64,000 bases of DNA from Thermosediminibacterales bacterium (GCA_029982205.1 JARRCM010000006.1:9438-73437); one strand, 5' to 3'. Positions 4,441-33,208 are shown, numbered from the stretch's first letter. Made by a program: numbers and translations. Notes: generated by a model not told the origin, from the sequence alone.

Positions 4441-4690
4441 ATATAAAAACCTAAAGCCTTTCATCCGTTAAAGGACGAAAGGCTCTTTGTCTTCCGCGGT
4501 ACCACCTTATTTCCCTAAAGGGCAGCTTGCAATTCTAACGGAACTTCCGTCTGAACTTACTGTTTTCAGTTCAGATGCTCCCGGGCGACATTCAGGGTTA
4601 ACCTGCCGAAAGGCTTTTCAGCCTATGAGCCTTTCTCTCTGAGGCGGTTCGCTCCTTACTCCTCCCGTTCAAAGCATTTTTCTTCTTGAG
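4441..4690 (-). promoter_or_regulatory. T-box leader of valS (candidate GUC Val specifier)
   Basis: Minus strand has AGAGAG and AGUAA boxes, GAAU-GUC-G in the specifier-loop position (GUC at 4589-4587) and the T-box core AAUAAGGUGGUACCGCGGAAG. The terminator is AGCCUUUC...GAAAGGCU followed by a U-run. Confidence 0.85.
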
Positions 4691-13068: not shown

Positions 13069-13143
13069 TGGAGCGGAAGACGGGATTTGAACCCGCGACC
13101 CTCGCCTTGGCAAGGCGATGCTCTACCACTGAGCCACTTCCGC
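13069..13143 (-). tRNA. tRNA-Gly (GCC)
   Basis: The reverse complement folds as a cloverleaf with GGTTCAAATCC T-arm, anticodon loop TTGCCAA and encoded CCA. Confidence 0.92.
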
Positions 13144-13147
13144 ATAC

Positions 13148-13234
13148 TGGTGCGAGGAAAGGGACTCGAACCCCCACGCCGTAAGGGCACTAGATCCTAA
13201 GTCTAGCGCGTCTGCCAATTCCGCCATCCTCGCA
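13148..13234 (-). tRNA. tRNA-Leu (TAG)
   Basis: 87 nt class II tRNA with a long variable arm, anticodon loop CTTAGGA, GGTTCGAGTCC T-arm and encoded CCA. Confidence 0.9.
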
Positions 13235-13243
13235 ATTAGTTAA

Positions 13244-13319
13244 TGGTGAGCCATGGAGGAATCGAACCTCCGACACCCTGATTAAAAGTCAGGTGCTCTA
13301 CCGACTGAGCTAATGGCCC
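13244..13319 (-). tRNA. tRNA-Lys (TTT)
   Basis: Anticodon stem-loop CCTGA-CTTTTAA-TCAGG, GGTTCGATTCC T-arm and encoded CCA. Confidence 0.92.
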
Positions 13320-13340
13320 ACGTTCAGTCCAACTTCTTAA

Positions 13341-13417
13341 TGGTGCGCCCGGCAGGATTCGAACCTGCGACCTCCAGATTCGAAGTCTGTAACTCTATCC
13401 AGCTGAGCTACGGGCGC
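13341..13417 (-). tRNA. tRNA-Arg (TCG)
   Basis: Anticodon loop CTTCGAA, GGTTCGAATCC T-arm and encoded CCA. Confidence 0.88.
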
Positions 13418-13438
13418 TTAATAAATTTGACAGCTAAA

Positions 13439-13467
13439 ATTATAACAAAAAAACTTCACCTGGTCAA
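13439..13467 (-). promoter_or_regulatory. Near-consensus sigma-A promoter for the distal tRNA cluster
   Basis: TTGACC (13467-13462), a 17-nt spacer and TATAAT (13444-13439), about 20 nt upstream of tRNA-Arg. Confidence 0.65.
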
Positions 13468-13475
13468 GGACAATT

Positions 13476-14201
13476 TCAGCCTAACTTCACCCTATTGTAA
13501 AAACCAAAAAAACTGTTCCCAGAAGTCGTTTTTATAAAATAAGTCCGGTTTGGATTTATTATTATCTCAAATGGAAAACTAAATGTCTGAGGCTTTCCAT
13601 AAATGTCAAGTATATCAACATCCCTTATATCAGGATATGTCGTAAAAAACTTCTGCAGTGTTAAACCAAAAGGCCTGGCCAGCACATTTGCTAAAAGAAA
13701 GACCGCTGCAATGTTTATCAGAGACAGGTGTTTATAAAAAAAGAGCATAAATATAAATACAAGAGAGAAAAGAAAATTGGCAGCTGCTATTGAAGTTCCA
13801 CATCTTGGATGCAAAGCAAGTCTTGTTTCACCGTTCGCCATGCGGTAAAGGCCTTCTCTTGCAGCATCCAAAACTTCGTAATGGGATGGAAGATCCGGGC
13901 CTGAAAGCGAGAAACCGTTAGAATATGCAAGCCCTCCTATTCTTAAAGAACGGCCGTATCTCTCCTCAAGCACGTTAACAGTAGCATGTTCCAAACTATG
14001 ATTCTTTCTAACCCTCTTGTCCACAGCTATTTTCAAAATCTGCCACGGTATCGTAATTACATTGAAAAAGGAATTAAAAATGATTACATATGGAATCAAA
14101 AACAAAAAACCTATTACAGAGAAAATAAGAAACGGTATCAGAAGATAAGGAAAGAATAAAAGAATTAAAAGCAACACAAATAAAAAAGGCACAAAAATCA
14201 A
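13476..14201 (-). CDS. Hypothetical polytopic membrane protein with an HSLEH (HxxEH) motif and HPRCGTS
   Basis: 241 aa, or about 238 aa if the GTG at 14192 is used (GGGAGG lies 9 nt upstream). Hydrophobic N-terminal and central helices flank a soluble segment, NHSLEHATVNVLEERYG...HPRCGTS. I recognise no family. Confidence 0.6.
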   Translation of the reverse strand: MIFVPFLFVLLLILLFFPYLLIPFLIFSVIGFLFLIPYVIIFNSFFNVITIPWQILKIAVDKRVRKNHSLEHATVNVLEERYGRSLRIGGLAYSNGFSLSGPDLPSHYEVLDAAREGLYRMANGETRLALHPRCGTSIAAANFLFSLVFIFMLFFYKHLSLINIAAVFLLANVLARPFGLTLQKFFTTYPDIRDVDILDIYGKPQTFSFPFEIIINPNRTYFIKTTSGNSFFGFYNRVKLG

Positions 14202-14229
14202 CCTCCCTTTTGATGGAAGAACTGTTTTT

Positions 14230-14238
14230 ATTATATCA
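14230..14238 (-). promoter_or_regulatory. Extended -10 promoter (TGATATAAT) for the membrane-protein CDS
   Basis: Minus strand reads TGATATAAT about 25 nt upstream of the SD. No good -35 element. Confidence 0.4.
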
Positions 14239-14290
14239 AATAATTTGACAAAAAAAAATAAAAACTCACTAAAAACAAACTTAGTTCAAA

Positions 14291-14319
14291 ACAAAAAAAC
14301 AGCTTGTTTAAAGCTGTTT
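14291..14319 (-). terminator. Terminator after the proximal tRNA cluster
   Basis: 9-bp stem AAACAGCUU/AAGCUGUUU followed by UUUUUUUG on the minus strand. Confidence 0.75.
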
Positions 14320-14329
14320 CACGACTTTT

Positions 14330-14407
<78 letters not shown>

Positions 14408-14412
14408 ATAAA

Positions 14413-14489
14413 TGGTGCGCCTGGGAGGACTCGAACCCCCGACACACGGATTAGAAGTCCGTTGCTCTATCCACCTGAGCTACAGGCGC
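14413..14489 (-). tRNA. tRNA-Arg (TCT)
   Basis: Anticodon stem-loop ACGGA-CTTCTAA-TCCGT, GGTTCGAGTCC T-arm and encoded CCA. Confidence 0.9.
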
Positions 14490-14500
14490 ATTTTATATAA

Positions 14501-14576
14501 TGGAGCGGGAAACGGGATTCGAACCCGCGACCCCCAGCTTGGAAGGCTGGTGCTCTAGCCCCTGAGCTACTCCCGC
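14501..14576 (-). tRNA. tRNA-Gly (TCC)
   Basis: Anticodon stem-loop CCAGC-CTTCCAA-GCTGG, GGTTCGAATCC T-arm and encoded CCA. Confidence 0.92.
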
Positions 14577-17180: not shown

Positions 17181-17455
17181 TTTAAATCAAAAACCCCTCG
17201 CCCTTCTGGGACGAGAGGTTCTCGCGTTACCACCCAGGTTATTTTGCGTTTGCAAAATCCCTCATTATTAGGGTACGGAGCTTTTAAGCCCTTATACCCC
17301 CTTTCTTTTAACGGTGAAAGTTTCCGTCCCGGCCTACTGTCATTTCAGCCTGCAGCTCCGGGGTGTATTCAACGGTTTCTCCCCATCGGCCTTCCACCAT
17401 CACCGACTCGCTAAAGGTATCGAAAGCCGTCTACTTCTCCCCTTCACAGCCCTTT
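17181..17455 (-). promoter_or_regulatory. T-box leader with UAC (Tyr) specifier upstream of DAHP synthase
   Basis: The specifier loop reads AGAAGUA on the 5' side and GAA-UAC-A on the 3' side (UAC at 17367-17365). The T-box core is GGGUGGUAACGCGAG. The terminator CCUCUCGUCCC-agaa-GGGCGAGGGG is followed by UUUUU. Confidence 0.85.
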
Positions 17456-17504
17456 TGACATTATTTAAATTCAATTGTTTTATAATATTTTGAATAAAAT
17501 TATA

Positions 17505-24826: not shown

Positions 24827-26881
24827 TTAATCTTTCTGTTCATAGTATTTTAAAATCCCTTTATAGAGCGCTTCTGCGGCTTTTTGTCGAAACTCCGGGT
24901 CTAAAAGCTTTTTCTCGTCTTCGGGATGTGTAAGGTAGCCCACCTCTGCAAGAACTGCAGGCATTTTTGTTTCCCGTAAAACTACCAAGTTTTCCCTTTC
25001 CCAGATGCCGCGGTCAACCATACCGAGCTCTTCTACCATGGTTTCCTGTACTAATTTTGCAATTTTTTTGCTTTCACCGGAACTGCCGGAACAGTAAAGT
25101 GTTTCAACTCCCTGTATCCTATCGTTGTAATAAGCATTGATGTGTATACTGAAAAACAAATCCGCTTTCATTTCGTTCGCTATATTAGGCCTTATCTGGT
25201 AAGGAACAGTAATATCCGTAGACCTTATCATATACGTTTTTGCACCTCCATCCAGGAGAAGCTCATTTAGACGTTTAGCTATATCTAATGTAAGGTCCTT
25301 TTCTTTTACTCCCGAAGGGCTTATTGCACCCGGTTCGTCACCGCCATGGCCTGCATCAACTACTATTAACTCTTCGGATAACGGAGACTTGAAGATATCT
25401 ACGATGACCTCTTCAGTAGGGCAGGTGTTTATGATTTCATGTTTATAGTAATAAGGCAGTTTTATTACAGCAACAACTTTAATTCCTCCGTTTTCCTCAA
25501 CCTGCTTTAGTTCAATATTATCAACAATCCCGTCATCCACAGGAAGGACGTTTTGCGATATTTTAATAACAGCCTGAGGAATTTCTACAGTTAGCTGTTT
25601 ATCTTCTCTCTCCACTCTAAAATCAACAGGGTCATTTGTTTTAAAAACAAGTCTTGTCCTGTTTGAAAACTTTTTAAATCTTACTTCTTCAAGCTTTTTA
25701 TATTTATTAAAGTAAACCTTTAAACCTTCCCCTTCAACCGGTTCTACGGTATAATCTGCCTTTTCCTTTAAATCAAACACAACCCTAACCACATCCGGGT
25801 TCACTGAAAACTGTGCCATTCTTATTCTATAAAGGATTTCATCGTTAATTTCTATATTAGAACTATCTGCATTAAATTCGGCATCATGTAAATCTATAAC
25901 AATTCGATCAGGTTCCGAAAGCTCATTGACGCTGTATTCTGTGTCAAATGGAGTTTTTATCAAAGCACTCTGCCCTAATTCTTCTTTGCTGTAATCCACA
26001 CCAAACATTTGGTTTTTAAAACAAACCACAACCTGTTTTTTGTTTTCAGATGTATGTATAGAATATGACATTTCTTTCTCTAAATCTATCACAACTCTAG
26101 TTATATCAGGGTCAACTTTAAACTGTCCAACCCTTATCTGCTTTACTCCGTTTTTCCCCACGTTTACTACCGGAACCTGTAACGCCACTTTTGTGGAAGG
26201 AAAATCTAAAATCAACCTGTTCGGATTCTGTAAAAAAAGTTGTTCATACTCCACAGGCCCGGAAGCATCAATCAGAACATCCAGCCCTTCAGGTGTTTTA
26301 GCATAAGCTACATTTATAATCTGTTGAGACTTTTTAACAACTTTGACAGTTCTTGTAGAACCATCCCAGAAAACATCTGCTCCTAATGCTTCACCCACAA
26401 AACGCAATGGAACCATGGTCCGGTTGTTAAAGATCTTGGCAGATACGTCCAATGTTACTTTTTTTTCATTAATTAAAGCCTCATTTTTATCTATAGTTAA
26501 TTTGATGATTCTGTTATGGGTTTTGATTTCTACCTGGCGTTCGGAACTGTGCCAGAAAACTTCAGCTCCCAGAGTTTCCGATACTATTCGTATAGGCACC
26601 ATCGTCCTGTTTTTATATATAAGAGGAGGGGTATCAGATTTTATTGTTTTGTTATTTATTATAAGAGTAATATCATTAGACCTCTCCGCAGTTACCGGCA
26701 CAATATTTGATAGTAGAATCAATATAACAATTACTAGAAAAGCCGCTTTTTTAAACACTGCAACAGCTCCTCCCCAGATTTCTATTTTAATACTTTTTAA
26801 CCTTTTTCGACCTTTTTTGTCTAAATCCTGCAAGAAATTAATGGGATTAAAAAAAAGGCCGGTATTCGACCTTGTTTTCAA
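24827..26881 (-). CDS. N-acetylmuramoyl-L-alanine amidase with copper-amine-oxidase-N-like repeats and multiple AMIN domains
   Basis: 684 aa. Signal anchor, then two NRTMVP(I/L)R...LGA.V.W repeats. At least two clear AMIN-like units (RLILDFP...TRVVIDL and RIVIDLH...VRVVFDL) plus a third degenerate one. C-terminal Amidase_3 domain (VVDAGHGG...SIHINA...E.GYL). Confidence 0.85.
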   Translation of the reverse strand: MKTRSNTGLFFNPINFLQDLDKKGRKRLKSIKIEIWGGAVAVFKKAAFLVIVILILLSNIVPVTAERSNDITLIINNKTIKSDTPPLIYKNRTMVPIRIVSETLGAEVFWHSSERQVEIKTHNRIIKLTIDKNEALINEKKVTLDVSAKIFNNRTMVPLRFVGEALGADVFWDGSTRTVKVVKKSQQIINVAYAKTPEGLDVLIDASGPVEYEQLFLQNPNRLILDFPSTKVALQVPVVNVGKNGVKQIRVGQFKVDPDITRVVIDLEKEMSYSIHTSENKKQVVVCFKNQMFGVDYSKEELGQSALIKTPFDTEYSVNELSEPDRIVIDLHDAEFNADSSNIEINDEILYRIRMAQFSVNPDVVRVVFDLKEKADYTVEPVEGEGLKVYFNKYKKLEEVRFKKFSNRTRLVFKTNDPVDFRVEREDKQLTVEIPQAVIKISQNVLPVDDGIVDNIELKQVEENGGIKVVAVIKLPYYYKHEIINTCPTEEVIVDIFKSPLSEELIVVDAGHGGDEPGAISPSGVKEKDLTLDIAKRLNELLLDGGAKTYMIRSTDITVPYQIRPNIANEMKADLFFSIHINAYYNDRIQGVETLYCSGSSGESKKIAKLVQETMVEELGMVDRGIWERENLVVLRETKMPAVLAEVGYLTHPEDEKKLLDPEFRQKAAEALYKGILKYYEQKD

Positions 26882-26885
26882 AGAA

Positions 26886-28583
26886 TTAACTGCATGTTGT
26901 CAAAAGCCCCCCAATTGATTTTTTTTGTTTCAAGACTTTTAGAAAAGCTTCAACAACCATGGGATCAAACTGGCTGCCGGAACATCTCTGAAGTTCATCT
27001 ATTGCTCCCTCATATGTTTTAGCAACAGCTTTATACGGCCTATTAGTAGTCATGGCATCAAAACTGTCAGCAACCGAAAGTATTCTTGCACCTAGCGGAA
27101 TTTGGTCACCTTTAAGGCCGAAAGGATATCCCCCTCCGTCATAGTATTCATGATGATACAAGATAAAAGGAACAATGCAACGCAGTGACTGAACCGATTT
27201 TATTATATCAGCTCCCCAAATTGGGTGTTTTTTCATGATTTCCCATTCCTCTAAAGTCAATGGAGACTTTTTGTTCAAAAGGCCCTCATCAATTTCTATT
27301 TTTCCAATATCATGTAAATAAGCAGCGTATTTAAGAATTCTTTTATCTTTATCAGAAAGCTGTAGTTGATCTGCAATAAGCTGAACATAAGCAGCAACCC
27401 GCTCAGAATGACCGTATGTATACCTGTCTTTAGCATTTATTATACTTATAAGGGTTTTTGCGGTTTCTATCACCTTTTGATCAGATTGATTCAAATCCTT
27501 TTTCAGATTATCCAGCACGGAAAAATAAAGTTCAACTTTATTTCTGCTTATATACTTGGCTTTATATAGAGCTTCGTCTGCTGCCCTGATAAGAGAATCT
27601 TTATCTTTCGCATTATCCGGATAGATTCCTATACCTATTGACACCGTCAATTTGCGTTTCAATGTGTTCTCAATTCCCGTAAATGGGAACTTCTCTAAAT
27701 TCGACCTTATTCTTTCAGCCACTTTTTGGGCAGAGTTTGCATTTGTTTCAGGCATTATTATGGCAAATTCATCTCCCCCGTAGCGTGCCGGTATGTCTGT
27801 TGCCCTTGTGTAATGCATCAAAAGTTTCCCTATCTGTTTCAAAATCATATCCCCTCTATGATGGCCGTTAGCATCATTATAAAATTTAAAATGGTCTATA
27901 TCCAACATTATTAAGGCCAACTTTGAATTCTTTTCTTCGGCTTTGTTTATTTCACGTTCCAACCTCTCCTGGAAGTACCTGTGATTATATAAACCCGTTA
28001 ATCCATCCCGGTTTGCCAAGGCAGTTAATGTCTTCCTGAAACCCATTTCTGTCTCAACCATTGAGCCTATTATCCAGCCGGCCATAAAAAAAATACCTAT
28101 TAAGACAATATCCGATTCTAAGTAGATGTTGCGGGATAAGTGCATATTTAAAACAAAGTCATTAAACAATACCCCTAAAGTAGATAATAATGAAGTTGTT
28201 ATGCCTATTTTCTTTCCATGTCTTAATGAATAAACGATTATTGCAAGAAGATAAAGGTCTTTAAACCTGCTTTCATGCGCACCTGTAAAATACACTATTG
28301 TTGTCAAAAAAACAATTGTAAAAAGTAAGTACAGGTAATGTGACTTTGTTAAAGAAGTATTTATATCTTTTTTATTTGAATATATCTCCCATATTTTCAC
28401 TAAAACAAAGAAAAAGAAATAAAAAACAGCAAGAATACTTATGGTTAAAGTAGATGTATTCATTTCCAAAGGCATATAGCTTATTAAAGCAACCACAATT
28501 AAAAATAAAGAAAATATTTTTATAATCGCTATTAAGTCATTAAGTTTTTTTACCCGCTCTCTTTCATATCTCTGCATAAACAC
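26886..28583 (-). CDS. Membrane-bound GGDEF diguanylate cyclase fused to an HD-GYP phosphodiesterase
   Basis: 565 aa. About 5-6 N-terminal TM helices. GGDEF domain with intact RYGGDEF and an RATD I-site 5 residues upstream. HD-GYP domain with HSERV, LHDIGK and HHEYYDGGGYP. Confidence 0.9.
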   Translation of the reverse strand: MFMQRYERERVKKLNDLIAIIKIFSLFLIVVALISYMPLEMNTSTLTISILAVFYFFFFVLVKIWEIYSNKKDINTSLTKSHYLYLLFTIVFLTTIVYFTGAHESRFKDLYLLAIIVYSLRHGKKIGITTSLLSTLGVLFNDFVLNMHLSRNIYLESDIVLIGIFFMAGWIIGSMVETEMGFRKTLTALANRDGLTGLYNHRYFQERLEREINKAEEKNSKLALIMLDIDHFKFYNDANGHHRGDMILKQIGKLLMHYTRATDIPARYGGDEFAIIMPETNANSAQKVAERIRSNLEKFPFTGIENTLKRKLTVSIGIGIYPDNAKDKDSLIRAADEALYKAKYISRNKVELYFSVLDNLKKDLNQSDQKVIETAKTLISIINAKDRYTYGHSERVAAYVQLIADQLQLSDKDKRILKYAAYLHDIGKIEIDEGLLNKKSPLTLEEWEIMKKHPIWGADIIKSVQSLRCIVPFILYHHEYYDGGGYPFGLKGDQIPLGARILSVADSFDAMTTNRPYKAVAKTYEGAIDELQRCSGSQFDPMVVEAFLKVLKQKKSIGGLLTTCS

Positions 28584-28604
28584 ACCTCAAAAACTTTTTA
28601 ACAG

Positions 28605-28640
28605 TGAAAGAAAAGGTAAGCTCAGCCACCTTTTCTTTTC
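28605..28640 (-). other. Stem-loop between agrD and the GGDEF/HD-GYP gene
   Basis: Core stem GAAAAGGU/ACCUUUUC (28635-28628 pairs with 28617-28610), extendable to about 12 bp with one bulge. No U-tract directly follows. Confidence 0.5.
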
Positions 28641-28646
28641 AAAAAC

Positions 28647-28772
28647 TTATTCTTCTCTTAAAGCTTTAGGAAGTTCAGGTTGATAAAACAACAATGTACA
28701 AGCTGAAGCAGCACTTGCCTGAGCCACCAGGGTCAATAATGCAACTCCAAGCGCAAACAGCATTTTTTTCAT
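28647..28772 (-). CDS. agrD: AgrD-type autoinducing-peptide precursor (41 aa), absent from the ORF track
   Basis: Translation is MKKMLFALGVALLTLVAQASAASACTLLFYQPELPKALREE. The ATG overlaps the agrB stop (TGATG) and GGAGG lies 9 nt upstream. Cys plus 4 residues (CTLLF) is followed by an acidic E.PK.L tail like S. aureus AgrD (CDFIM-DEVEVPKELTQLHE). Confidence 0.8.
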   Translation of the reverse strand: MKKMLFALGVALLTLVAQASAASACTLLFYQPELPKALREE

Positions 28773-29437
28773 CAAAAAACACCTCCTTTATCTTTAGTTT
28801 TTCTGTAAAACAAACTTAACCATGTCAAACCATAATCTACCTTGTTCAAAAATCTGTAACCTGTTGGGGTTATGATAAATGCCTGCCATGTCATACCAAT
28901 GATAATACTGAGTATGTATTCAGGATCTAATTTAAAGAAAATCAGCAGAACAGCAAGAGCGAAATATAAAATAACAATTGTAACAGATATTCTCCTTAAA
29001 CCTGTTTTCTTTTTATTTGAAATAGGTTTTGCAGGGGTATCTGCAGGTGAGTATTTCATAAAAGAGCTTAAACTGATTAACAAAGATATAAAACTTGCAA
29101 ACAGCATAAAATAAATATTACTTACATTTTGTGAAACGTAATATGTCAACAACCCTAAACTTGGAAAAAATATGGAACCGAAAAAGTTGCATTTAAACGG
29201 TGTCGAACAGTGTGCGCCTCCTGCAAAAACTCTTAAAATACCTGCAGCTATCGTAATAGTTAATGTCGTTTCTAATACTCCCAAAAACATCGAAACAATA
29301 ATAACAAAAAAAAGTCCTATTGTAATTGACATCACTACATTAAGCGAGTATTCAACAACTTCTCGCTTATCTTCATCTAAAGAGAGTTCGTCTTTCAGGA
29401 TAAATGAAATTTTTGAAGAAATTTCGCTAATCGACAT
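28772..29437 (-). CDS. agrB: AgrB-family membrane endopeptidase (AIP maturation)
   Basis: 221 aa, polytopic. The LRVFAGGAHCSTPFKC motif has His and Cys 7 residues apart, like the catalytic H77/C84 of S. aureus AgrB. Confidence 0.85.
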   Translation of the reverse strand: MSISEISSKISFILKDELSLDEDKREVVEYSLNVVMSITIGLFFVIIVSMFLGVLETTLTITIAAGILRVFAGGAHCSTPFKCNFFGSIFFPSLGLLTYYVSQNVSNIYFMLFASFISLLISLSSFMKYSPADTPAKPISNKKKTGLRRISVTIVILYFALAVLLIFFKLDPEYILSIIIGMTWQAFIITPTGYRFLNKVDYGLTWLSLFYRKTKDKGGVF

Positions 29438-29933
29438 TTTTCAAACCTCTTTTATTCCTGTTAGAATCCACTTTATATTTAATAAAGCAAAATATATACA
29501 GTATAGCTAAGGATGGCAAGCCAAACATTAATCTTAACAAGTCATTACTTAACATGTAATTCAAATCATAACCGGTAATTTTCAACATCAATGTAATACT
29601 TATCCATTCTCCAATTGCTAAAAGTGCAACAGCAGAAATCATCGCTGTAATTGATTTTTTCAATTCTATACTTAGATATAGGTTGAGAATAAACATATAG
29701 ATAATCATACTTATAATTGAGTGAATACCAAATTTCACGGGAAGCATCCTTATAAAATATACAATAATACCTCCGCTCAAGCCAAAAATCAATGTATTCC
29801 TTAATGTGATTTTTTCATATTCTTTTATAACCGCCATTCCCACCAAAAAAATCCCTATAACTTCAGGAATGGCTCTTAGAAACAAAAATGAAAACGGCGC
29901 TTCAAATCTTATAACCTCCTGAGTTTGTTCCAA
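29427..29933 (-). CDS. Hypothetical 5-TM membrane protein, first gene of the agr operon
   Basis: 168 aa with about five hydrophobic helices and a basic C-terminal tail. Its stop overlaps the agrB start by 11 nt (ATGTCGATTAG). I recognise no catalytic motif. Confidence 0.6.
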   Translation of the reverse strand: MEQTQEVIRFEAPFSFLFLRAIPEVIGIFLVGMAVIKEYEKITLRNTLIFGLSGGIIVYFIRMLPVKFGIHSIISMIIYMFILNLYLSIELKKSITAMISAVALLAIGEWISITLMLKITGYDLNYMLSNDLLRLMFGLPSLAILYIFCFIKYKVDSNRNKRGLKNVD

Positions 29934-30010
29934 AATTTTCTTTATATAAAATTATACGACAAAAACTAAAAAAATCCTGCCATAATTGTAAAATTTTGTT
30001 CAAAATATTA

Positions 30011-30032
30011 ACCCTGCTTTTTAAAGCAAGGT
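30011..30032 (-). terminator. Terminator-like hairpin after the histidine kinase gene
   Basis: ACCUUGCUU-uaaaa-AAGCAGGGU immediately after the stop, followed by UAAUAUUUU. Confidence 0.5.
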
Positions 30033-31805
30033 TTAATTTTGCATTTTCGGTAAAGTAAAACTAAAGATAGAACCCTTTCCGGGAGAACTCTCTGCTGAAA
30101 CCTCTCCGCCATGGACTTCTATGATGTTTTTTACTATTGCCAGTCCAAGCCCGGTGCCTCCTGTTTTCCTGGTTCTGGATTTGTCTACTTTGTGAAACCT
30201 TTGCCATATATTTTCTATATCTTCTTTAGGTATACCGATTCCTGTATCCTGAACACTAATTTTTATATACTGTTCCATCTCCTCAGAAAAAACAGTAACA
30301 GTTCCTTTTTCAGGAGTAAAATTAATCGCATTGGATATCAGATTTATTAATACCTGTTCTATCCGATCCTCATTTCCATAAGCTAAAGATAAATTATCGT
30401 TTATATTGTTAATAATTTTTATATTCCTATTATCTGCTAGAGCTTTCATTTTATCTATAACCCTTTTTGTGATTTCGGGAAGGCTGATAGGCTTCATTTC
30501 CCATTGAACTTTACCCGATTCCAAAAGGGCTAAATCCAATAAATCGGTAACCAATCGGTTAAGCCTCAAGGTCTCTTCATGAATCATGTTTAGATATTTT
30601 TCCTGACTTTCTTTTTCATCAATAAGACCATCGATCATGGCCTCTATAAAACCCTGAATAGAAGTCAGCGGCGTTCTCAACTCATGAGAAACGTTTGCCA
30701 CAAAATCTCTCCTCATTTGTTCCAGCTTCCTGATTGCAGTAATATCCTGTAAAACCGCCACAGCGCCCTGGAGGTCTTCTTCTCCGCTCTGTATCGGCGA
30801 CGCGTGAACCAAAAAAATCAACTTTTCATTATCTAAAACAATTTCGGTGCTGCTGGATTCTTTTTCAATTAAAACTTTATTTAAAACTTCAGCAAGCTTT
30901 TGGGGCTTTAAAACATTTTCAACAGACATGCCGTTATAGTTGATTTCTTTAAGGCCCAAATGCTCTTCCGCCTGGGCATTGGCTAAAATCAATCCCCCAT
31001 TTTTGTCTATAGCTATTACCCCTTCAGCCATATTTTCAACGATTTTTTCTATTTTACTTTTTTCAGTAGATAAGGCCGTTATGGTTTTGCTTAAAGTTTC
31101 AGTCAGGGTGTTAAAACTCTGGGCCAACTGGCCTACTTCATCCTGTGATGTTACTTCTATCCTATGATTAAAATCGCCTCTTGCCATTTGTAATGATGCT
31201 CTGCTCATTTGTTTTAATGGTTTGGAAATGGATTTTGATAAAAAAATACCAATTACCGCTGAAAGTATCACACCTCCCAAAGCTGCATAAACAATCATCT
31301 GCCGCACATTAAATATCACAGCTGTTGCACCTTCAATAGGGGCTCTAAGCAGCAAGCCGCCGATTATTTTGTTATTCATTTTAATAGGGACAGCTACAGC
31401 TATCATTGCCTGGTTAAACAGGGGGTGAAACCCTATGCTTGTGACTGTTTCACCTTTTAAGACCCTTGCAGTTTCCTCTGTATTCAGCTTGAGCCCTCTT
31501 GGAAGCCTCTTCCCGGCAGTAGATGCAACTATTCTGCCTTCAGTATTTATTACGAACAACCTTGAATCTAAAAAGTTGTCTAAAGTTTTAAGCAATATTT
31601 CGGCTGTTTCATCTGGAAGACGATTCTGGGTGTTTTGAACAAGAATACGGGCTATTTCCTTTCCTTCTCTGATAAGTTCGTTTTGTTTTGAATTAAAATA
31701 ATAGTTCTGGAAAAGATGTGACAACAGTATACCCATAGATAAAAGTGTTATAACTATAATTCCCAGGTATGACACAAATAACCTGCTGAAAAGGTTTTTA
31801 AACAT
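30033..31805 (-). CDS. Sensor histidine kinase (2 TM, extracytoplasmic domain, HAMP-PAS-HisKA-HATPase_c)
   Basis: 590 aa. H-box SHELRTPLTSI, N-box LISNAINFT and G-boxes DTGIGI / GGTGLGL. An extracytoplasmic loop of about 150 aa lies between two TM helices. Confidence 0.92.
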   Translation of the reverse strand: MFKNLFSRLFVSYLGIIVITLLSMGILLSHLFQNYYFNSKQNELIREGKEIARILVQNTQNRLPDETAEILLKTLDNFLDSRLFVINTEGRIVASTAGKRLPRGLKLNTEETARVLKGETVTSIGFHPLFNQAMIAVAVPIKMNNKIIGGLLLRAPIEGATAVIFNVRQMIVYAALGGVILSAVIGIFLSKSISKPLKQMSRASLQMARGDFNHRIEVTSQDEVGQLAQSFNTLTETLSKTITALSTEKSKIEKIVENMAEGVIAIDKNGGLILANAQAEEHLGLKEINYNGMSVENVLKPQKLAEVLNKVLIEKESSSTEIVLDNEKLIFLVHASPIQSGEEDLQGAVAVLQDITAIRKLEQMRRDFVANVSHELRTPLTSIQGFIEAMIDGLIDEKESQEKYLNMIHEETLRLNRLVTDLLDLALLESGKVQWEMKPISLPEITKRVIDKMKALADNRNIKIINNINDNLSLAYGNEDRIEQVLINLISNAINFTPEKGTVTVFSEEMEQYIKISVQDTGIGIPKEDIENIWQRFHKVDKSRTRKTGGTGLGLAIVKNIIEVHGGEVSAESSPGKGSIFSFTLPKMQN

Positions 31806-32488
31806 TACTTATCCACCTCAAATTTATAGCCCACTCCCCATACTGTTTTGATAAACTGGTTGCCATCTTTTTCTAACTTCATTCTCAATCTTTTTACATG
31901 TGTGTCAACAGTTCTCGGGTCGCCCAGATATACATAACCCCATACATTTTCTAACAGCTGTTCCCTGCTGTAAACCCTGCCGGGGTTTTTTGCCAAAAAC
32001 CAAAGCAGTTCAAATTCTTTAGGCGACAGCTTTATTTCTTTGCCCCCTACTGTCACCTTGCGAAAATCATAGTCTATATTTAAGCCATCATAAGAAAGGG
32101 ACTTAGAATCAGAAACAGAGCTGTCAAGCCTTCTTAAAATTGCTTTTACTCTTGCCACAAGTTCTCTCGGGCTAAAAGGTTTACATACATAATCATCGGC
32201 GCCCATCTCAAGCCCTAATACACGGTCTATCTCTTCTCCCTTTGCCGTCAGCAGAATGATTGGAATGGAATAATTCTTGCGAATTTCCTGACAAACCTTC
32301 AATCCATCAATCTTTGGCAGCATAATGTCCAGAATTATCAACTTAGGGCTTATTTCTTTTACCTTTTTTAAAGCTTCTTCTCCGTTGTTTGCAGTAAATA
32401 CCTTAAAACCATTTTTTTCAAGGTATAACCTGACAAGTTCAAGTATTTTCTCCTCATCATCAACTACTAAAATAGCAGGTTTATCCAT
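31805..32488 (-). CDS. OmpR/PhoB-family response regulator
   Basis: 227 aa. Receiver domain with DD..., the phospho-acceptor D in ILDIMLP and the conserved K. C-terminal winged helix (TVDTHVKRLRMKL...GVGYKF). Its stop overlaps the kinase start (TAATG). Confidence 0.93.
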   Translation of the reverse strand: MDKPAILVVDDEEKILELVRLYLEKNGFKVFTANNGEEALKKVKEISPKLIILDIMLPKIDGLKVCQEIRKNYSIPIILLTAKGEEIDRVLGLEMGADDYVCKPFSPRELVARVKAILRRLDSSVSDSKSLSYDGLNIDYDFRKVTVGGKEIKLSPKEFELLWFLAKNPGRVYSREQLLENVWGYVYLGDPRTVDTHVKRLRMKLEKDGNQFIKTVWGVGYKFEVDK

Positions 32489-32582
32489 AAAAGCTTTCCT
32501 CCCGATAACAGGTTGTCTTCTTGATTAAATATATTATTTCATTATCTTCAAATCTTTTCAACTAATCCTGGTTAAAAAACTC

Positions 32583-32618
32583 AAAAAAAATGAAGGAAGG
32601 TAGCTTTAACCTTCCCTC
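32583..32618 (-). terminator. Rho-independent terminator after the Spy/CpxP-like gene
   Basis: GAGGGAAGGU-uaaagcu-ACCUUCCUUC stem with one mismatch, followed by AUUUUUUUU. Confidence 0.7.
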
Positions 32619-32632
32619 AAACCCTACTTAAA

Positions 32633-33088
32633 TTAAAACCTGAAACCTCTTCCCCCGCAACCGAACCCGCCACGGCGGAACCCTTTGCCGAAACCGCGAG
32701 CAAACCCTGACTCAAGTTTTTCTAGCTGTTCTGTAGTTAAAATTGACTTCAGCTCAGTTCTGTGTTCTTCGGCTAGTTCTTTCATTTTTGTTCTAAGGTC
32801 TGTTAGCTGTTCTTTTAATTCTGAAATCTTGTCCTGATCAGGATTTTCCTGCAGATAAAGCTGCCTTAATTCAAACATTTTTTCTGCTATTTGTTCTCTC
32901 ATGTCCTGAGTTTCAGTAAAATGTTCCTTCTGAAGTTCTAACAGTTGCGCTCTTTGTTCTTCTGAAAGGTCTAAACTAACGTTCCATCTTTCACCTCCCA
33001 TAAAACCAGGGCCTGCCGCAGAAGCAAACTGTGCAATACCCAGCACCAGAAGTGAAACTACGGTTAACAAAATCACCTTTTTCCTCAT
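32633..33088 (-). CDS. Secreted Spy/CpxP/ZraP-like (LTXXQ-type) protein with a Gly/Arg/Phe-rich tail
   Basis: Signal peptide ...IAQFASA-AGP. LSEEQ and LTTEQ motifs sit in helical, E/K/Q-rich sequence. The C-terminus is GFGKGFRRGGFGCGGRGFRF. I moved the start to the second ATG (33088) because the upstream ATGGAGGTGA reads as its SD. Confidence 0.65.
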   Translation of the reverse strand: MRKKVILLTVVSLLVLGIAQFASAAGPGFMGGERWNVSLDLSEEQRAQLLELQKEHFTETQDMREQIAEKMFELRQLYLQENPDQDKISELKEQLTDLRTKMKELAEEHRTELKSILTTEQLEKLESGFARGFGKGFRRGGFGCGGRGFRF

Positions 33089-33208
33089 TTTCTTCACCTC
33101 CATTTTTATTTGATTTTATTTTATCCCACGTTTTTGACAAAACTGTGAACAAACTCTAAAGAAAATATGAATTATAACTCCATTAATTATAATCCCAAAA
33201 AAACACAT

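Follow-up and report, generated by a model that had tools for sequence, protein, structure and literature searches.

The window analysed here, a stretch of 64 kb that is our whole view of the source genome, comes from a Thermosediminibacterales bacterium and contains agrB and agrD, the genes of an Agr-type peptide pheromone (autoinducing peptide, AIP), followed by a gene for a membrane protein with GGDEF and HD-GYP domains, which we call the sensor. We found that these genes belong to a signalling cassette that is widespread in clostridia and has the order orfX-agrB-agrD-(hairpin)-sensor. The minus strand carries every gene from 33.1 down to 24.8 kb of the window, and the order in the direction of transcription is a Spy-like protein gene, the genes for an OmpR-type response regulator (RR) and a HAMP-PAS histidine kinase (HK), orfX, agrB, agrD, the sensor gene, whose product has a six-transmembrane (6TM) domain in front of the GGDEF and HD-GYP domains, and an amidase gene (Table 1). 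The open reading frames (ORFs) of the window and the profile matches agreed with the gene positions and the domain content of the initial annotation, except that it had missed orfX, a 168-aa ORF with multiple transmembrane (TM) segments that overlaps agrB.

A phmmer search of all ORFs of at least 80 aa in the window found one receiver domain, one HK core, one GGDEF domain and one HD-GYP domain. The sole kinase core is the HisKA/HATPase_c core of the HAMP-PAS kinase and not an AgrC-like HPK10 kinase, the sole receiver domain is of the OmpR type and not that of an AgrA-like LytTR regulator, and the AgrA/LytTR query had no match among these ORFs. The initial annotation had likewise reported neither an HPK10-type AgrC nor a LytTR AgrA in the window.

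AgrB matched PF04647 with an E value of 2e-37 (128.7 bits against a cut-off of 23), and AgrD matched TIGR04223 with an E value of 2e-10 (40.5 bits against a cut-off of 19); the ATG of agrD overlaps the stop codon of agrB (TGATG). The 41-aa AgrD, MKKMLFALGVALLTLVAQASAASACTLLFYQPELPKALREE, was aligned with the 12 cassette AgrDs and has the amphipathic leader, the Cys-x4 ring and the acidic P-K-x-L tail of a pheromone precursor, and its core reads ...SAC-TLLF-YQPELPKALREE. In Staphylococcus aureus AgrD, the position of the ring relative to P-K-x-L is known. Because the window AgrD has the same five-residue spacing to the conserved P-K-x-L, we assigned C-T-L-L-F as the ring, which is predicted to be a thiolactone (C25-T-L-L-F29), and the tail YQPELPKALREE is predicted to be removed by AgrB.

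The AlphaFold2 (AF2) model of sensor residues 1-185 has six helices (predicted at residues 2-36, 45-69, 80-99, 106-122, 124-145 and 155-184; pLDDT 88.4, pTM 0.83), within the range of five to six given in the initial annotation. The predicted outer loops are residues 37-44, 100-105 and 146-154, and the distribution of Lys and Arg fits an N-in, C-in topology under the positive-inside rule. A Pfam search with this TM domain gave only weak, sub-threshold matches, to 6TM_PilS and DUF4118, and a diverged AgrC sensor domain found no support as its identity (hhalign probability 1.7%, S. aureus AgrC query). The GGDEF domain (E = 3e-50) has RYGGDEF and, at the spacing of PleD, an RATD I-site, so that both GG[DE]EF and RxxD are intact (RATDIPARYGGDEF), and the HD_5/HD-GYP match (E = 8e-38) retains LHDIGK and HHEYYDGGGYP. 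The two domains thus have the motifs of active enzymes, as the initial annotation had proposed. Among 170 members of the sensor family, GG[DE]EF is present in 165, HHExx[DN]GxGYP in 169 and the RxxD I-site in 123. Both catalytic motifs are under purifying selection, and because they are kept across the family, both activities on cyclic di-GMP (c-di-GMP) appear to be maintained. The sensor is therefore predicted to be a membrane-embedded, bifunctional GGDEF/HD-GYP c-di-GMP enzyme.

Table 1. Features of the cassette and of the genes upstream of it, in the direction of transcription (window positions)
Feature	Position	Strand	Basis or remark
Spy/CpxP-like LTXXQ protein	33103-32633	-	window ORF annotation
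Strong terminator after the LTXXQ gene	32619-32591	-	
OmpR-type RR	32488-31805	-	Response_reg + Trans_reg_C
HAMP-PAS-HisKA-HATPase_c kinase	31805-30033	-	overlaps the RR gene
Terminator-like hairpin after the HK gene	30033-30010	-	
Intergenic region from the HK terminator to orfX; presumed cassette promoter	29934-30009	-	sequence inspection
orfX, 168-aa multi-TM ORF	29427-29933	-	no Pfam/NCBIfam family
agrB, membrane peptidase/cyclase processing AgrD	28772-29437	-	PF04647
agrD, 41-aa pheromone precursor	28647-28772	-	TIGR04223
AU-rich hairpin of about 13 bp	28606-28640	-	folding
Sensor gene, 565 aa, whole ORF	28583-26886	-	GGDEF + HD-GYP matches
Sensor residues 1-185, predicted 6TM module	28029-28583	-	AF2 model + positive-inside pattern
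GGDEF diguanylate cyclase domain (predicted), residues 190-348	27540-28016	-	profile match, intact motifs
HD-GYP c-di-GMP phosphodiesterase domain (predicted), residues 377-543	26955-27455	-	profile match, intact motifs
Intrinsic terminator closing the cassette, 7-bp GC-rich stem + T8	26855-26873	-	13 nt past the sensor stop codon

Full-length homologues of the sensor, with 43-52% identity over 96-100% of the length including the TM domain, number more than 100 in Clostridia. Among the 14 species-level genomes that encode such a homologue, 13 have the order orfX-agrB-agrD-sensor with unrelated flanking genes. These are the source metagenome-assembled genome (MAG), Clostridium sporogenes, Oxobacter pfennigii, C. 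tepidum, C. estertheticum, Clostridium sp. B9, Crassaminicella thermophila, Caproiciproducens sp. and several MAGs, and the 14th genome, that of Geosporobacter, has orfX and the sensor. The full-length family alignment was also used to scan genomes, with the HD-GYP motif as the seed, and drew mostly unrelated GGDEF-HD-GYP proteins, which served as controls: agrB was found beside a GGDEF-HD-GYP protein without this TM domain at none of the 73 control loci.

The reverse test was a search of metagenomes with a back-translated AgrD motif (A-C-x4-YQPEEPK), which is blind to the downstream gene. It gave 120 loci, 105 of which had enough downstream sequence to judge, and in 96 of these 105 agrD is directly followed by a gene for the 6TM domain. 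Of the 96, at least 69 are of the GGDEF-HD-GYP type and six are of the PAS-HisKA-HATPase type, the remainder being cut by the contig end or fragmentary and thus untypable. The nine exceptions are a VanZ-associated AgrD subfamily, a single locus without any recognisable downstream gene and four loci in which agrD precedes agrB. The first of these comprises L097, L114, L126 and L169 (L numbers denote loci in our collection), which share one AgrD subfamily (...SASACWIWFYQPEEPK...) and have no 6TM sensor downstream; in L114, L126 and L169, agrD is followed by a VanZ-like ORF, whereas the ORF at this place in L097, 474 aa long, is a different one. The AgrD of L176 is of another kind, nothing recognisable lies downstream of it, and neither a 6TM sensor nor orfX was detected at this locus. 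The four loci with the reversed order (L128, L167, L178 and L197) have an AgrD type of gut metagenomes with an extended tail (...ANSACFFFLYQPEEPK.LK.L..F). The adjacency of agr genes and sensor, for which the initial annotation had suggested a check in related genomes, is thus kept across Clostridia.

In related metagenome loci (about five independent allele pairs, none of them from the source genome), the TM domain of the sensor was found to diverge together with the pheromone genes. When two cassettes share the same AgrD ring, their TM domains are at least 96% identical, whereas pairs with different rings have TM domains only 68-76% identical with catalytic regions still 90-98% identical. 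At the DNA level, L145 (ring C-FWAH) and L191 (C-IWSH) differ most in the stretch that runs from the promoter across orfX, agrB and agrD into the sensor gene, up to about nt 530 of the latter (54-89% identity); identity is 97-100% in the two flanks and 95-100% in the remainder of the sensor gene. Their sensors have 97.8% identity in the catalytic region and 76% in the TM domain. Four more different-ring pairs gave a like profile (catalytic 90-94%, TM 68-71%), and a same-ring control did not. The amino acid differences are concentrated in helices 1-3 and in the first and third of the predicted outer loops; 48% of the positions in outer loops differ, as against 27% of those in the membrane. The pheromone specificity groups of S. 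aureus are defined by joint variation of agrB, agrD and the sensor half of agrC. Because the block matches this pattern, we argue that orfX, AgrB, AgrD and the 6TM domain form one co-adapted unit, and we regard the block as the most telling line of evidence in this analysis. Together with the conserved adjacency, the co-divergence of the TM domain supports the functional tie between the membrane GGDEF/HD-GYP enzyme and the pheromone genes that the initial annotation had suspected.

The 6TM domain is also found in front of other output domains. In an exhaustive HMMER search, residues 1-185 matched 91 representative clusters. Many of these are about 560 aa long and so presumably of the GGDEF-HD-GYP type, and one (P0138) adds a C-terminal MEDS domain; the other outputs are PAS-HisKA-HATPase (614-619 aa), HisKA-HATPase (393-471 aa) and HisKA-HATPase-REC hybrids, one of them with GAF. 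In C. sporogenes (L002 10839-16647) and C. tepidum (L005 8887-13291), a second orfX-agrB-agrD set near the GGDEF-type cassette is followed by a hairpin and then by a 6TM kinase, and this set is preceded by a third orfX-like gene paired with a 6TM-PAS-HisKA kinase. By length and architecture, these kinases correspond to CBO0336 and CBO0340, which are orphan sporulation kinases of C. botulinum (PMC11210211). In L211, a 415-aa 6TM kinase is directly followed by AgrB between two small ORFs, one of 149 aa in the position of orfX and one of 30 aa in that of AgrD. In L213 (1957-6290), the genes for a 393-aa 6TM HisKA kinase, a 191-aa ORF (in the position of orfX), agrB, agrD and a 569-aa 6TM-GGDEF-HD-GYP protein lie in a row. 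In this locus, with which L212 is listed, one agrBD pair thus stands between two sensors that share the 6TM domain, the kinase upstream and the GGDEF-HD-GYP protein downstream. The distribution of the 6TM domain suggests a movable input module tied to agrBD.

The 3' end of orfX overlaps the start of agrB by 11 nt, and we therefore place orfX in the agr operon. Members of the orfX family are conserved membrane proteins of about 155-170 aa with five helices and the invariant residues R53, G60, H62 and E100 (numbering of the 159-aa form). None of 12 orfX members matched Pfam, orfX matched no NCBIfam model, and a word-based homology search with orfX returned orfX alone. Its single-sequence AF2 model (pLDDT 60) was too poor for a structure search. 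The possibility that orfX is a free-standing copy of the sensor TM domain was rejected (hhalign probability 0.3%). According to the hidden Markov model (HMM) of the family, orfX lies upstream of agrB, mostly overlapping it, in 59 of the 69 metagenome loci with room upstream, and it has this position in 13 of the 14 genomes. Four of the ten loci without orfX (L097, L114, L126 and L176) are without the sensor too, and the presence of orfX appears to track that of the sensor; the upstream sequence of L169 was too short to judge. orfX is paired with the sensor also where agrBD is missing: in Geosporobacter ferrireducens (L207 3472-5701), orfX (family HMM, E = 2e-39) is directly followed by a GGDEF-HD-GYP sensor, with no agrB, agrD or hairpin. 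As this species keeps orfX and the sensor without agrBD, orfX may be a partner of the sensor and not of peptide synthesis.

The true start of orfX in the window is likely the TTG at 29905-29903, which lies behind an AGGAGG ribosome-binding site at 29920-29915 (just within the annotated orfX ORF) and is not in frame here. A second assembly of this organism (L001) has one extra T (gaagcTgccg versus gaagcgccg), which restores the frame and gives a 159-aa database protein; the 1-nt indel may reflect strain variation, a genuine frameshift or a mistake in assembly. Another gene often lies before orfX; it encodes a DUF5317 protein (PF17248) at L002 5914-6465 and L206 2106-2660, and ORFs of 187 and 189 aa, whose likeness to DUF5317 was judged by eye, have the same position at L008 4074-4637 and L011 3916-4485, respectively; in L206, luxS and an AI-2E transporter gene also adjoin. 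The gene in the DUF5317 position and orfX may correspond to CPE1563 and CPE1562 of C. perfringens, hypothetical genes that are co-transcribed with agrBD (PMC2706048).

The cassette promoter presumably lies in 29934-30009, where a TATAAT is found at 29956-29951, although a sigma-70 scan of this region gave no full match to both hexamers. The same scan of 28775-28584 found no promoter-like site between agrB/agrD and the sensor gene. The spacer between agrD and the sensor gene is 63 nt to the annotated GTG and 69 nt to the likelier ATG at 28577. The initial annotation was right about the 63 nt and about the lack of a canonical U-tract terminator in this gap, but it overlooked an AU-rich hairpin with a 13-bp stem at 28640-28606, which begins 6 nt past the agrD stop codon (minimum free energy -16.4 and centroid -14 kcal/mol, z = -1.8). 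A hairpin lies directly 3' of agrD in 12 of 12 genome cassettes. In the metagenome loci, 79 of 84 distinct agrD-sensor spacers have z below -2 (median z, -4.7), with a median stem of 13 bp that starts about 3 nt past the stop codon and with T-rich tails in only some of them. Among the features by which we recognise the cassette, a hairpin after agrD and a 6TM sensor gene within about 60-90 nt are both found in the window. Plain co-transcription with nothing between agrD and the sensor gene, as initially supposed, is not supported in view of this conserved hairpin. The hairpin is probably a leaky terminator, an attenuator or a processing or 3'-stabilising element that would set the ratio of agrD to sensor expression, and because it is conserved, read-through into the sensor gene is probably attenuated.

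The gene content and motifs, the conservation of the cassette, the re-use of the 6TM domain at agrBD loci and the co-divergence of the block led us to the following model. AgrB would cyclise AgrD, which would be released as a thiolactone pheromone with the ring C-T-L-L-F and would build up outside the cell. The 6TM domain of the adjacent downstream protein, probably together with orfX, would bind the pheromone, and binding would shift the balance between the GGDEF and HD-GYP activities, so that cell density would be read directly as c-di-GMP without a kinase or an RR. At the agrD hairpin, most transcripts would stop and give much peptide, and a fraction would be read through and give little receptor. 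We regard it as likely that the 6TM domain is the cognate pheromone receptor that would switch c-di-GMP synthesis and hydrolysis; as to the direction, we favour only weakly, and with low confidence, that the pheromone activates hydrolysis. The presence of a terminator after the HK gene, of none closing the unit before the end of the sensor gene and of no promoter-like site between agrD and the sensor gene was counted in favour of this model. We also lean towards a wider proposal, namely that the 6TM module, probably with orfX, represents an unrecognised class of AIP receptor in Clostridia that would plug the Agr pheromone into varied outputs, the commonest being GGDEF/HD-GYP and the alternatives kinases with PAS-HisKA or HisKA, among which are proteins resembling CBO0336 and CBO0340.

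Several points weigh against a receptor function of the 6TM domain. It has no detectable similarity to the AgrC sensor in the hhalign comparison (1.7%), and a search of the PDB gave no significant neighbour, the best Foldseek match being the membrane cyclase ImcA (E = 0.66). The hypervariable block was seen in related loci and not in this genome, in about five independent allele pairs, and the co-divergence could reflect protein contacts with AgrB or orfX instead of ligand binding. In the window itself, the hairpin is only marginally more stable than shuffled sequences (z = -1.8), and orfX may carry a frameshift at its start. As the window covers only 64 kb, the genome may hold an agrCA or virSR pair outside it, and the AIP receptor of C. 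perfringens is reported to be VirS (PMC10602386). Because of this report, a kinase receptor can coexist with the c-di-GMP route or replace it.

One alternative, which we consider unlikely, is that the 6TM domain senses another cue such as the state of the membrane or envelope, or contacts AgrB or orfX, while the peptide is sensed by another protein; c-di-GMP would then tune pheromone production or a shared regulon. The lack of similarity to the AgrC sensor and the report on VirS (PMC10602386) fit this explanation, as does the pairing of orfX with the sensor at loci that have no agrBD, which points to a membrane complex. However, the hypervariable block stops at the junction of the TM and cytoplasmic regions and follows the changes of the AIP ring, the differences are enriched in the predicted outer loops, and the same TM module is found on kinases at other agrBD loci, as expected of a ligand-binding input module. 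Another alternative, quite improbable in our judgement, would make a canonical AgrC/AgrA or VirS/VirR pair encoded outside the window the sole receptor and the GGDEF/HD-GYP gene a mere conserved neighbour. It would agree with the 64-kb limit of our view and with the precedent of orphan agrBD loci with distant kinase receptors, such as VirSR of C. perfringens (PMC10602386), but if the gene were neutral, the adjacency would not be kept at 96 of 105 loci in different clostridial orders, nor would the sensor domain alone co-diverge with agrD.

The window is without two defining elements of a canonical agr locus, the HPK10 kinase and the LytTR regulator, and resembles such a locus in peptide synthesis, sensor placement and allelic hypervariability. 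As in agrBDCA of S. aureus, AgrB and AgrD would make a cyclic thiolactone, a polytopic sensor (6-7 helices) is encoded right after agrD, and, in the related loci, the hypervariable block covers agrB, agrD and the TM half of the sensor with the cytoplasmic half conserved. Unlike that system, which signals through an HPK10 kinase and the LytTR regulator AgrA, the output here is GGDEF plus HD-GYP, and the clostridial cassette has an extra conserved orfX and a hairpin between agrD and the sensor gene.

The cassette also resembles the orphan agrBD loci of clostridia. C. sporogenes (L002) has two such loci, which we take to be its agr-1 and agr-2. The loci of C. perfringens (CPE1563-CPE1562-agrB-agrD), C. 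botulinum and C. sporogenes (agr-1 and agr-2) and C. difficile (agr1) have the same AgrD type (SAC-x4-[Y/H]QPE.PK.L), upstream hypothetical membrane-protein genes co-transcribed with agrBD (PMC2706048) and no adjacent agrCA. They differ in that the literature, in the portions accessible to us, treats them as receptor-less or as signalling via distant kinases (VirS) and does not discuss a downstream 6TM-GGDEF-HD-GYP protein. The nearly identical AgrD in L008, which is the sole hint, suggests CPE1560 as the candidate sensor gene of C. perfringens.

Burkholderia RpfR and Vibrio ScrC are known examples of c-di-GMP enzymes to which a quorum signal is directly coupled. In RpfR (PAS-GGDEF-EAL; summarised in PMC13220807), which responds to the Burkholderia diffusible signal factor (BDSF), and in ScrABC of Vibrio parahaemolyticus, as proposed here, the signal switches a bifunctional enzyme between synthesis and hydrolysis, directly or via one binding protein and without a transcription-factor cascade. 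The signal in those Gram-negative systems is a fatty acid or an unknown small molecule, received by a PAS domain in the cytoplasm or by a binding protein in the periplasm and coupled to EAL, whereas here it would be a ribosomal cyclic peptide of Gram-positive anaerobes, received by an integral-membrane domain and coupled to HD-GYP. In RpfC/RpfG of Xanthomonas (diffusible signal factor, DSF; kinase and REC-HD-GYP protein), the quorum signal also ends in c-di-GMP hydrolysis by HD-GYP, but through a two-component phosphorelay and not with sensor and enzyme in a single polypeptide. MASE-type domains on HD-GYP/GGDEF proteins are likewise promiscuous integral-membrane input modules, common to c-di-GMP enzymes and histidine kinases (10.1101/2021.11.05.467447), but in the present case there is a specific candidate for the ligand. 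No mention of the clostridial 6TM domain or of a link to agr was found in the accessible part of the HD-GYP survey of Galperin and Chou (bioRxiv 10.1101/2021.11.05.467447), and the sensor family, which is large, is apparently undescribed. A limited search of the searchable full-text literature found no description of an agr-to-GGDEF/HD-GYP link, in agreement with the remark in the initial annotation that this is not a described agr output, although an earlier passing mention is possible. The cassette would, to our knowledge, be the first known direct link between a Gram-positive peptide pheromone and c-di-GMP.

How pheromones are sensed in clostridia with agrBD but without agrCA is an open question: the receptor for AgrD1 of C. 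difficile 'remains elusive' (PMC10602386), and the agr pathways of C. botulinum 'remain to be defined' (PMC9229411). The sensor next to agrD is a concrete candidate. If our proposal is correct, it would explain by what means the many 'orphan' agrBD loci of clostridia are sensed, and it would connect quorum sensing directly with c-di-GMP and perhaps also with the phosphorylation of Spo0A. The versions in which the 6TM domain is joined to a kinase suggest a parallel pheromone route to sporulation kinases, and a route from pheromone to Spo0A via the 6TM kinases may thus exist. From the allelic blocks, clostridia are expected to have pheromone specificity groups, which may inhibit one another as those of staphylococci do. 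Because C. sporogenes and other carriers of the cassette are amenable to genetics, the prediction is quickly testable.

The initial annotation had considered either neighbour of agrBD, the sensor or the upstream kinase, as a possible AIP receptor. The kinase half of this statement is not supported. The HK has two TM segments around a periplasmic loop of about 130 aa, followed by HAMP, PAS, HisKA and HATPase_c, and its nearest NCBIfam models are WalK/PnpS/PhoR, with scores under their cut-offs. As noted initially, the OmpR-HAMP-PAS unit ends in its own hairpin (30033-30010). Among the ten genome cassette loci tested for the pair upstream of agr, that of the source organism was the sole case, the other nine being without it, and the pair was found at none of the 31 metagenome agr loci with at least 3.5 kb upstream. 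Full-length HK orthologues (43-51% identity) are common in Syntrophomonadaceae, Pelotomaculum, Desulfofundulus and relatives; a Syntrophomonadaceae contig (L210) has the same LTXXQ-RR-HK trio without agr genes, and Desulfofundulus has the RR-HK arrangement, also without agr genes. The Spy-like LTXXQ gene, the RR gene and the HK gene are thus a conserved trio of their own, and we read the pair as an independent, Spy-linked two-component module of the envelope- or metal-stress type and a bystander to the cassette. The trio (30033-33103) looks like a CpxP/CpxRA-style envelope-stress module of Gram-positive anaerobes. That the pair senses the AIP and drives the promoter at 29934-30032 is most improbable and was rejected: it adjoins the cassette in the same orientation and has a kinase with a periplasmic loop of about 130 aa, but a terminator stands between pair and cassette, the pair is missing from the other agr loci, and the orthologues occur without agr where the context was examined, in one case preceded by an LTXXQ/Spy-like gene.

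A c-di-GMP riboswitch or other RNA element at the cassette was also considered and rejected, as the Rfam matches in the window all lie elsewhere. They are one FMN riboswitch, a pair of T-box leaders and seven clustered tRNA genes (160-277, 4468-4681, 13072-14576 and 17204-17456) and are unrelated to the cassette. Downstream of the sensor gene, the annotated TTG start (26881) of the amidase (AMIN) ORF at 24827-26881 precedes the sensor terminator (26873-26855), which thus falls within the ORF. The true start of the amidase gene is probably further downstream, near the signal-peptide-like VFKKAAFLVIV.

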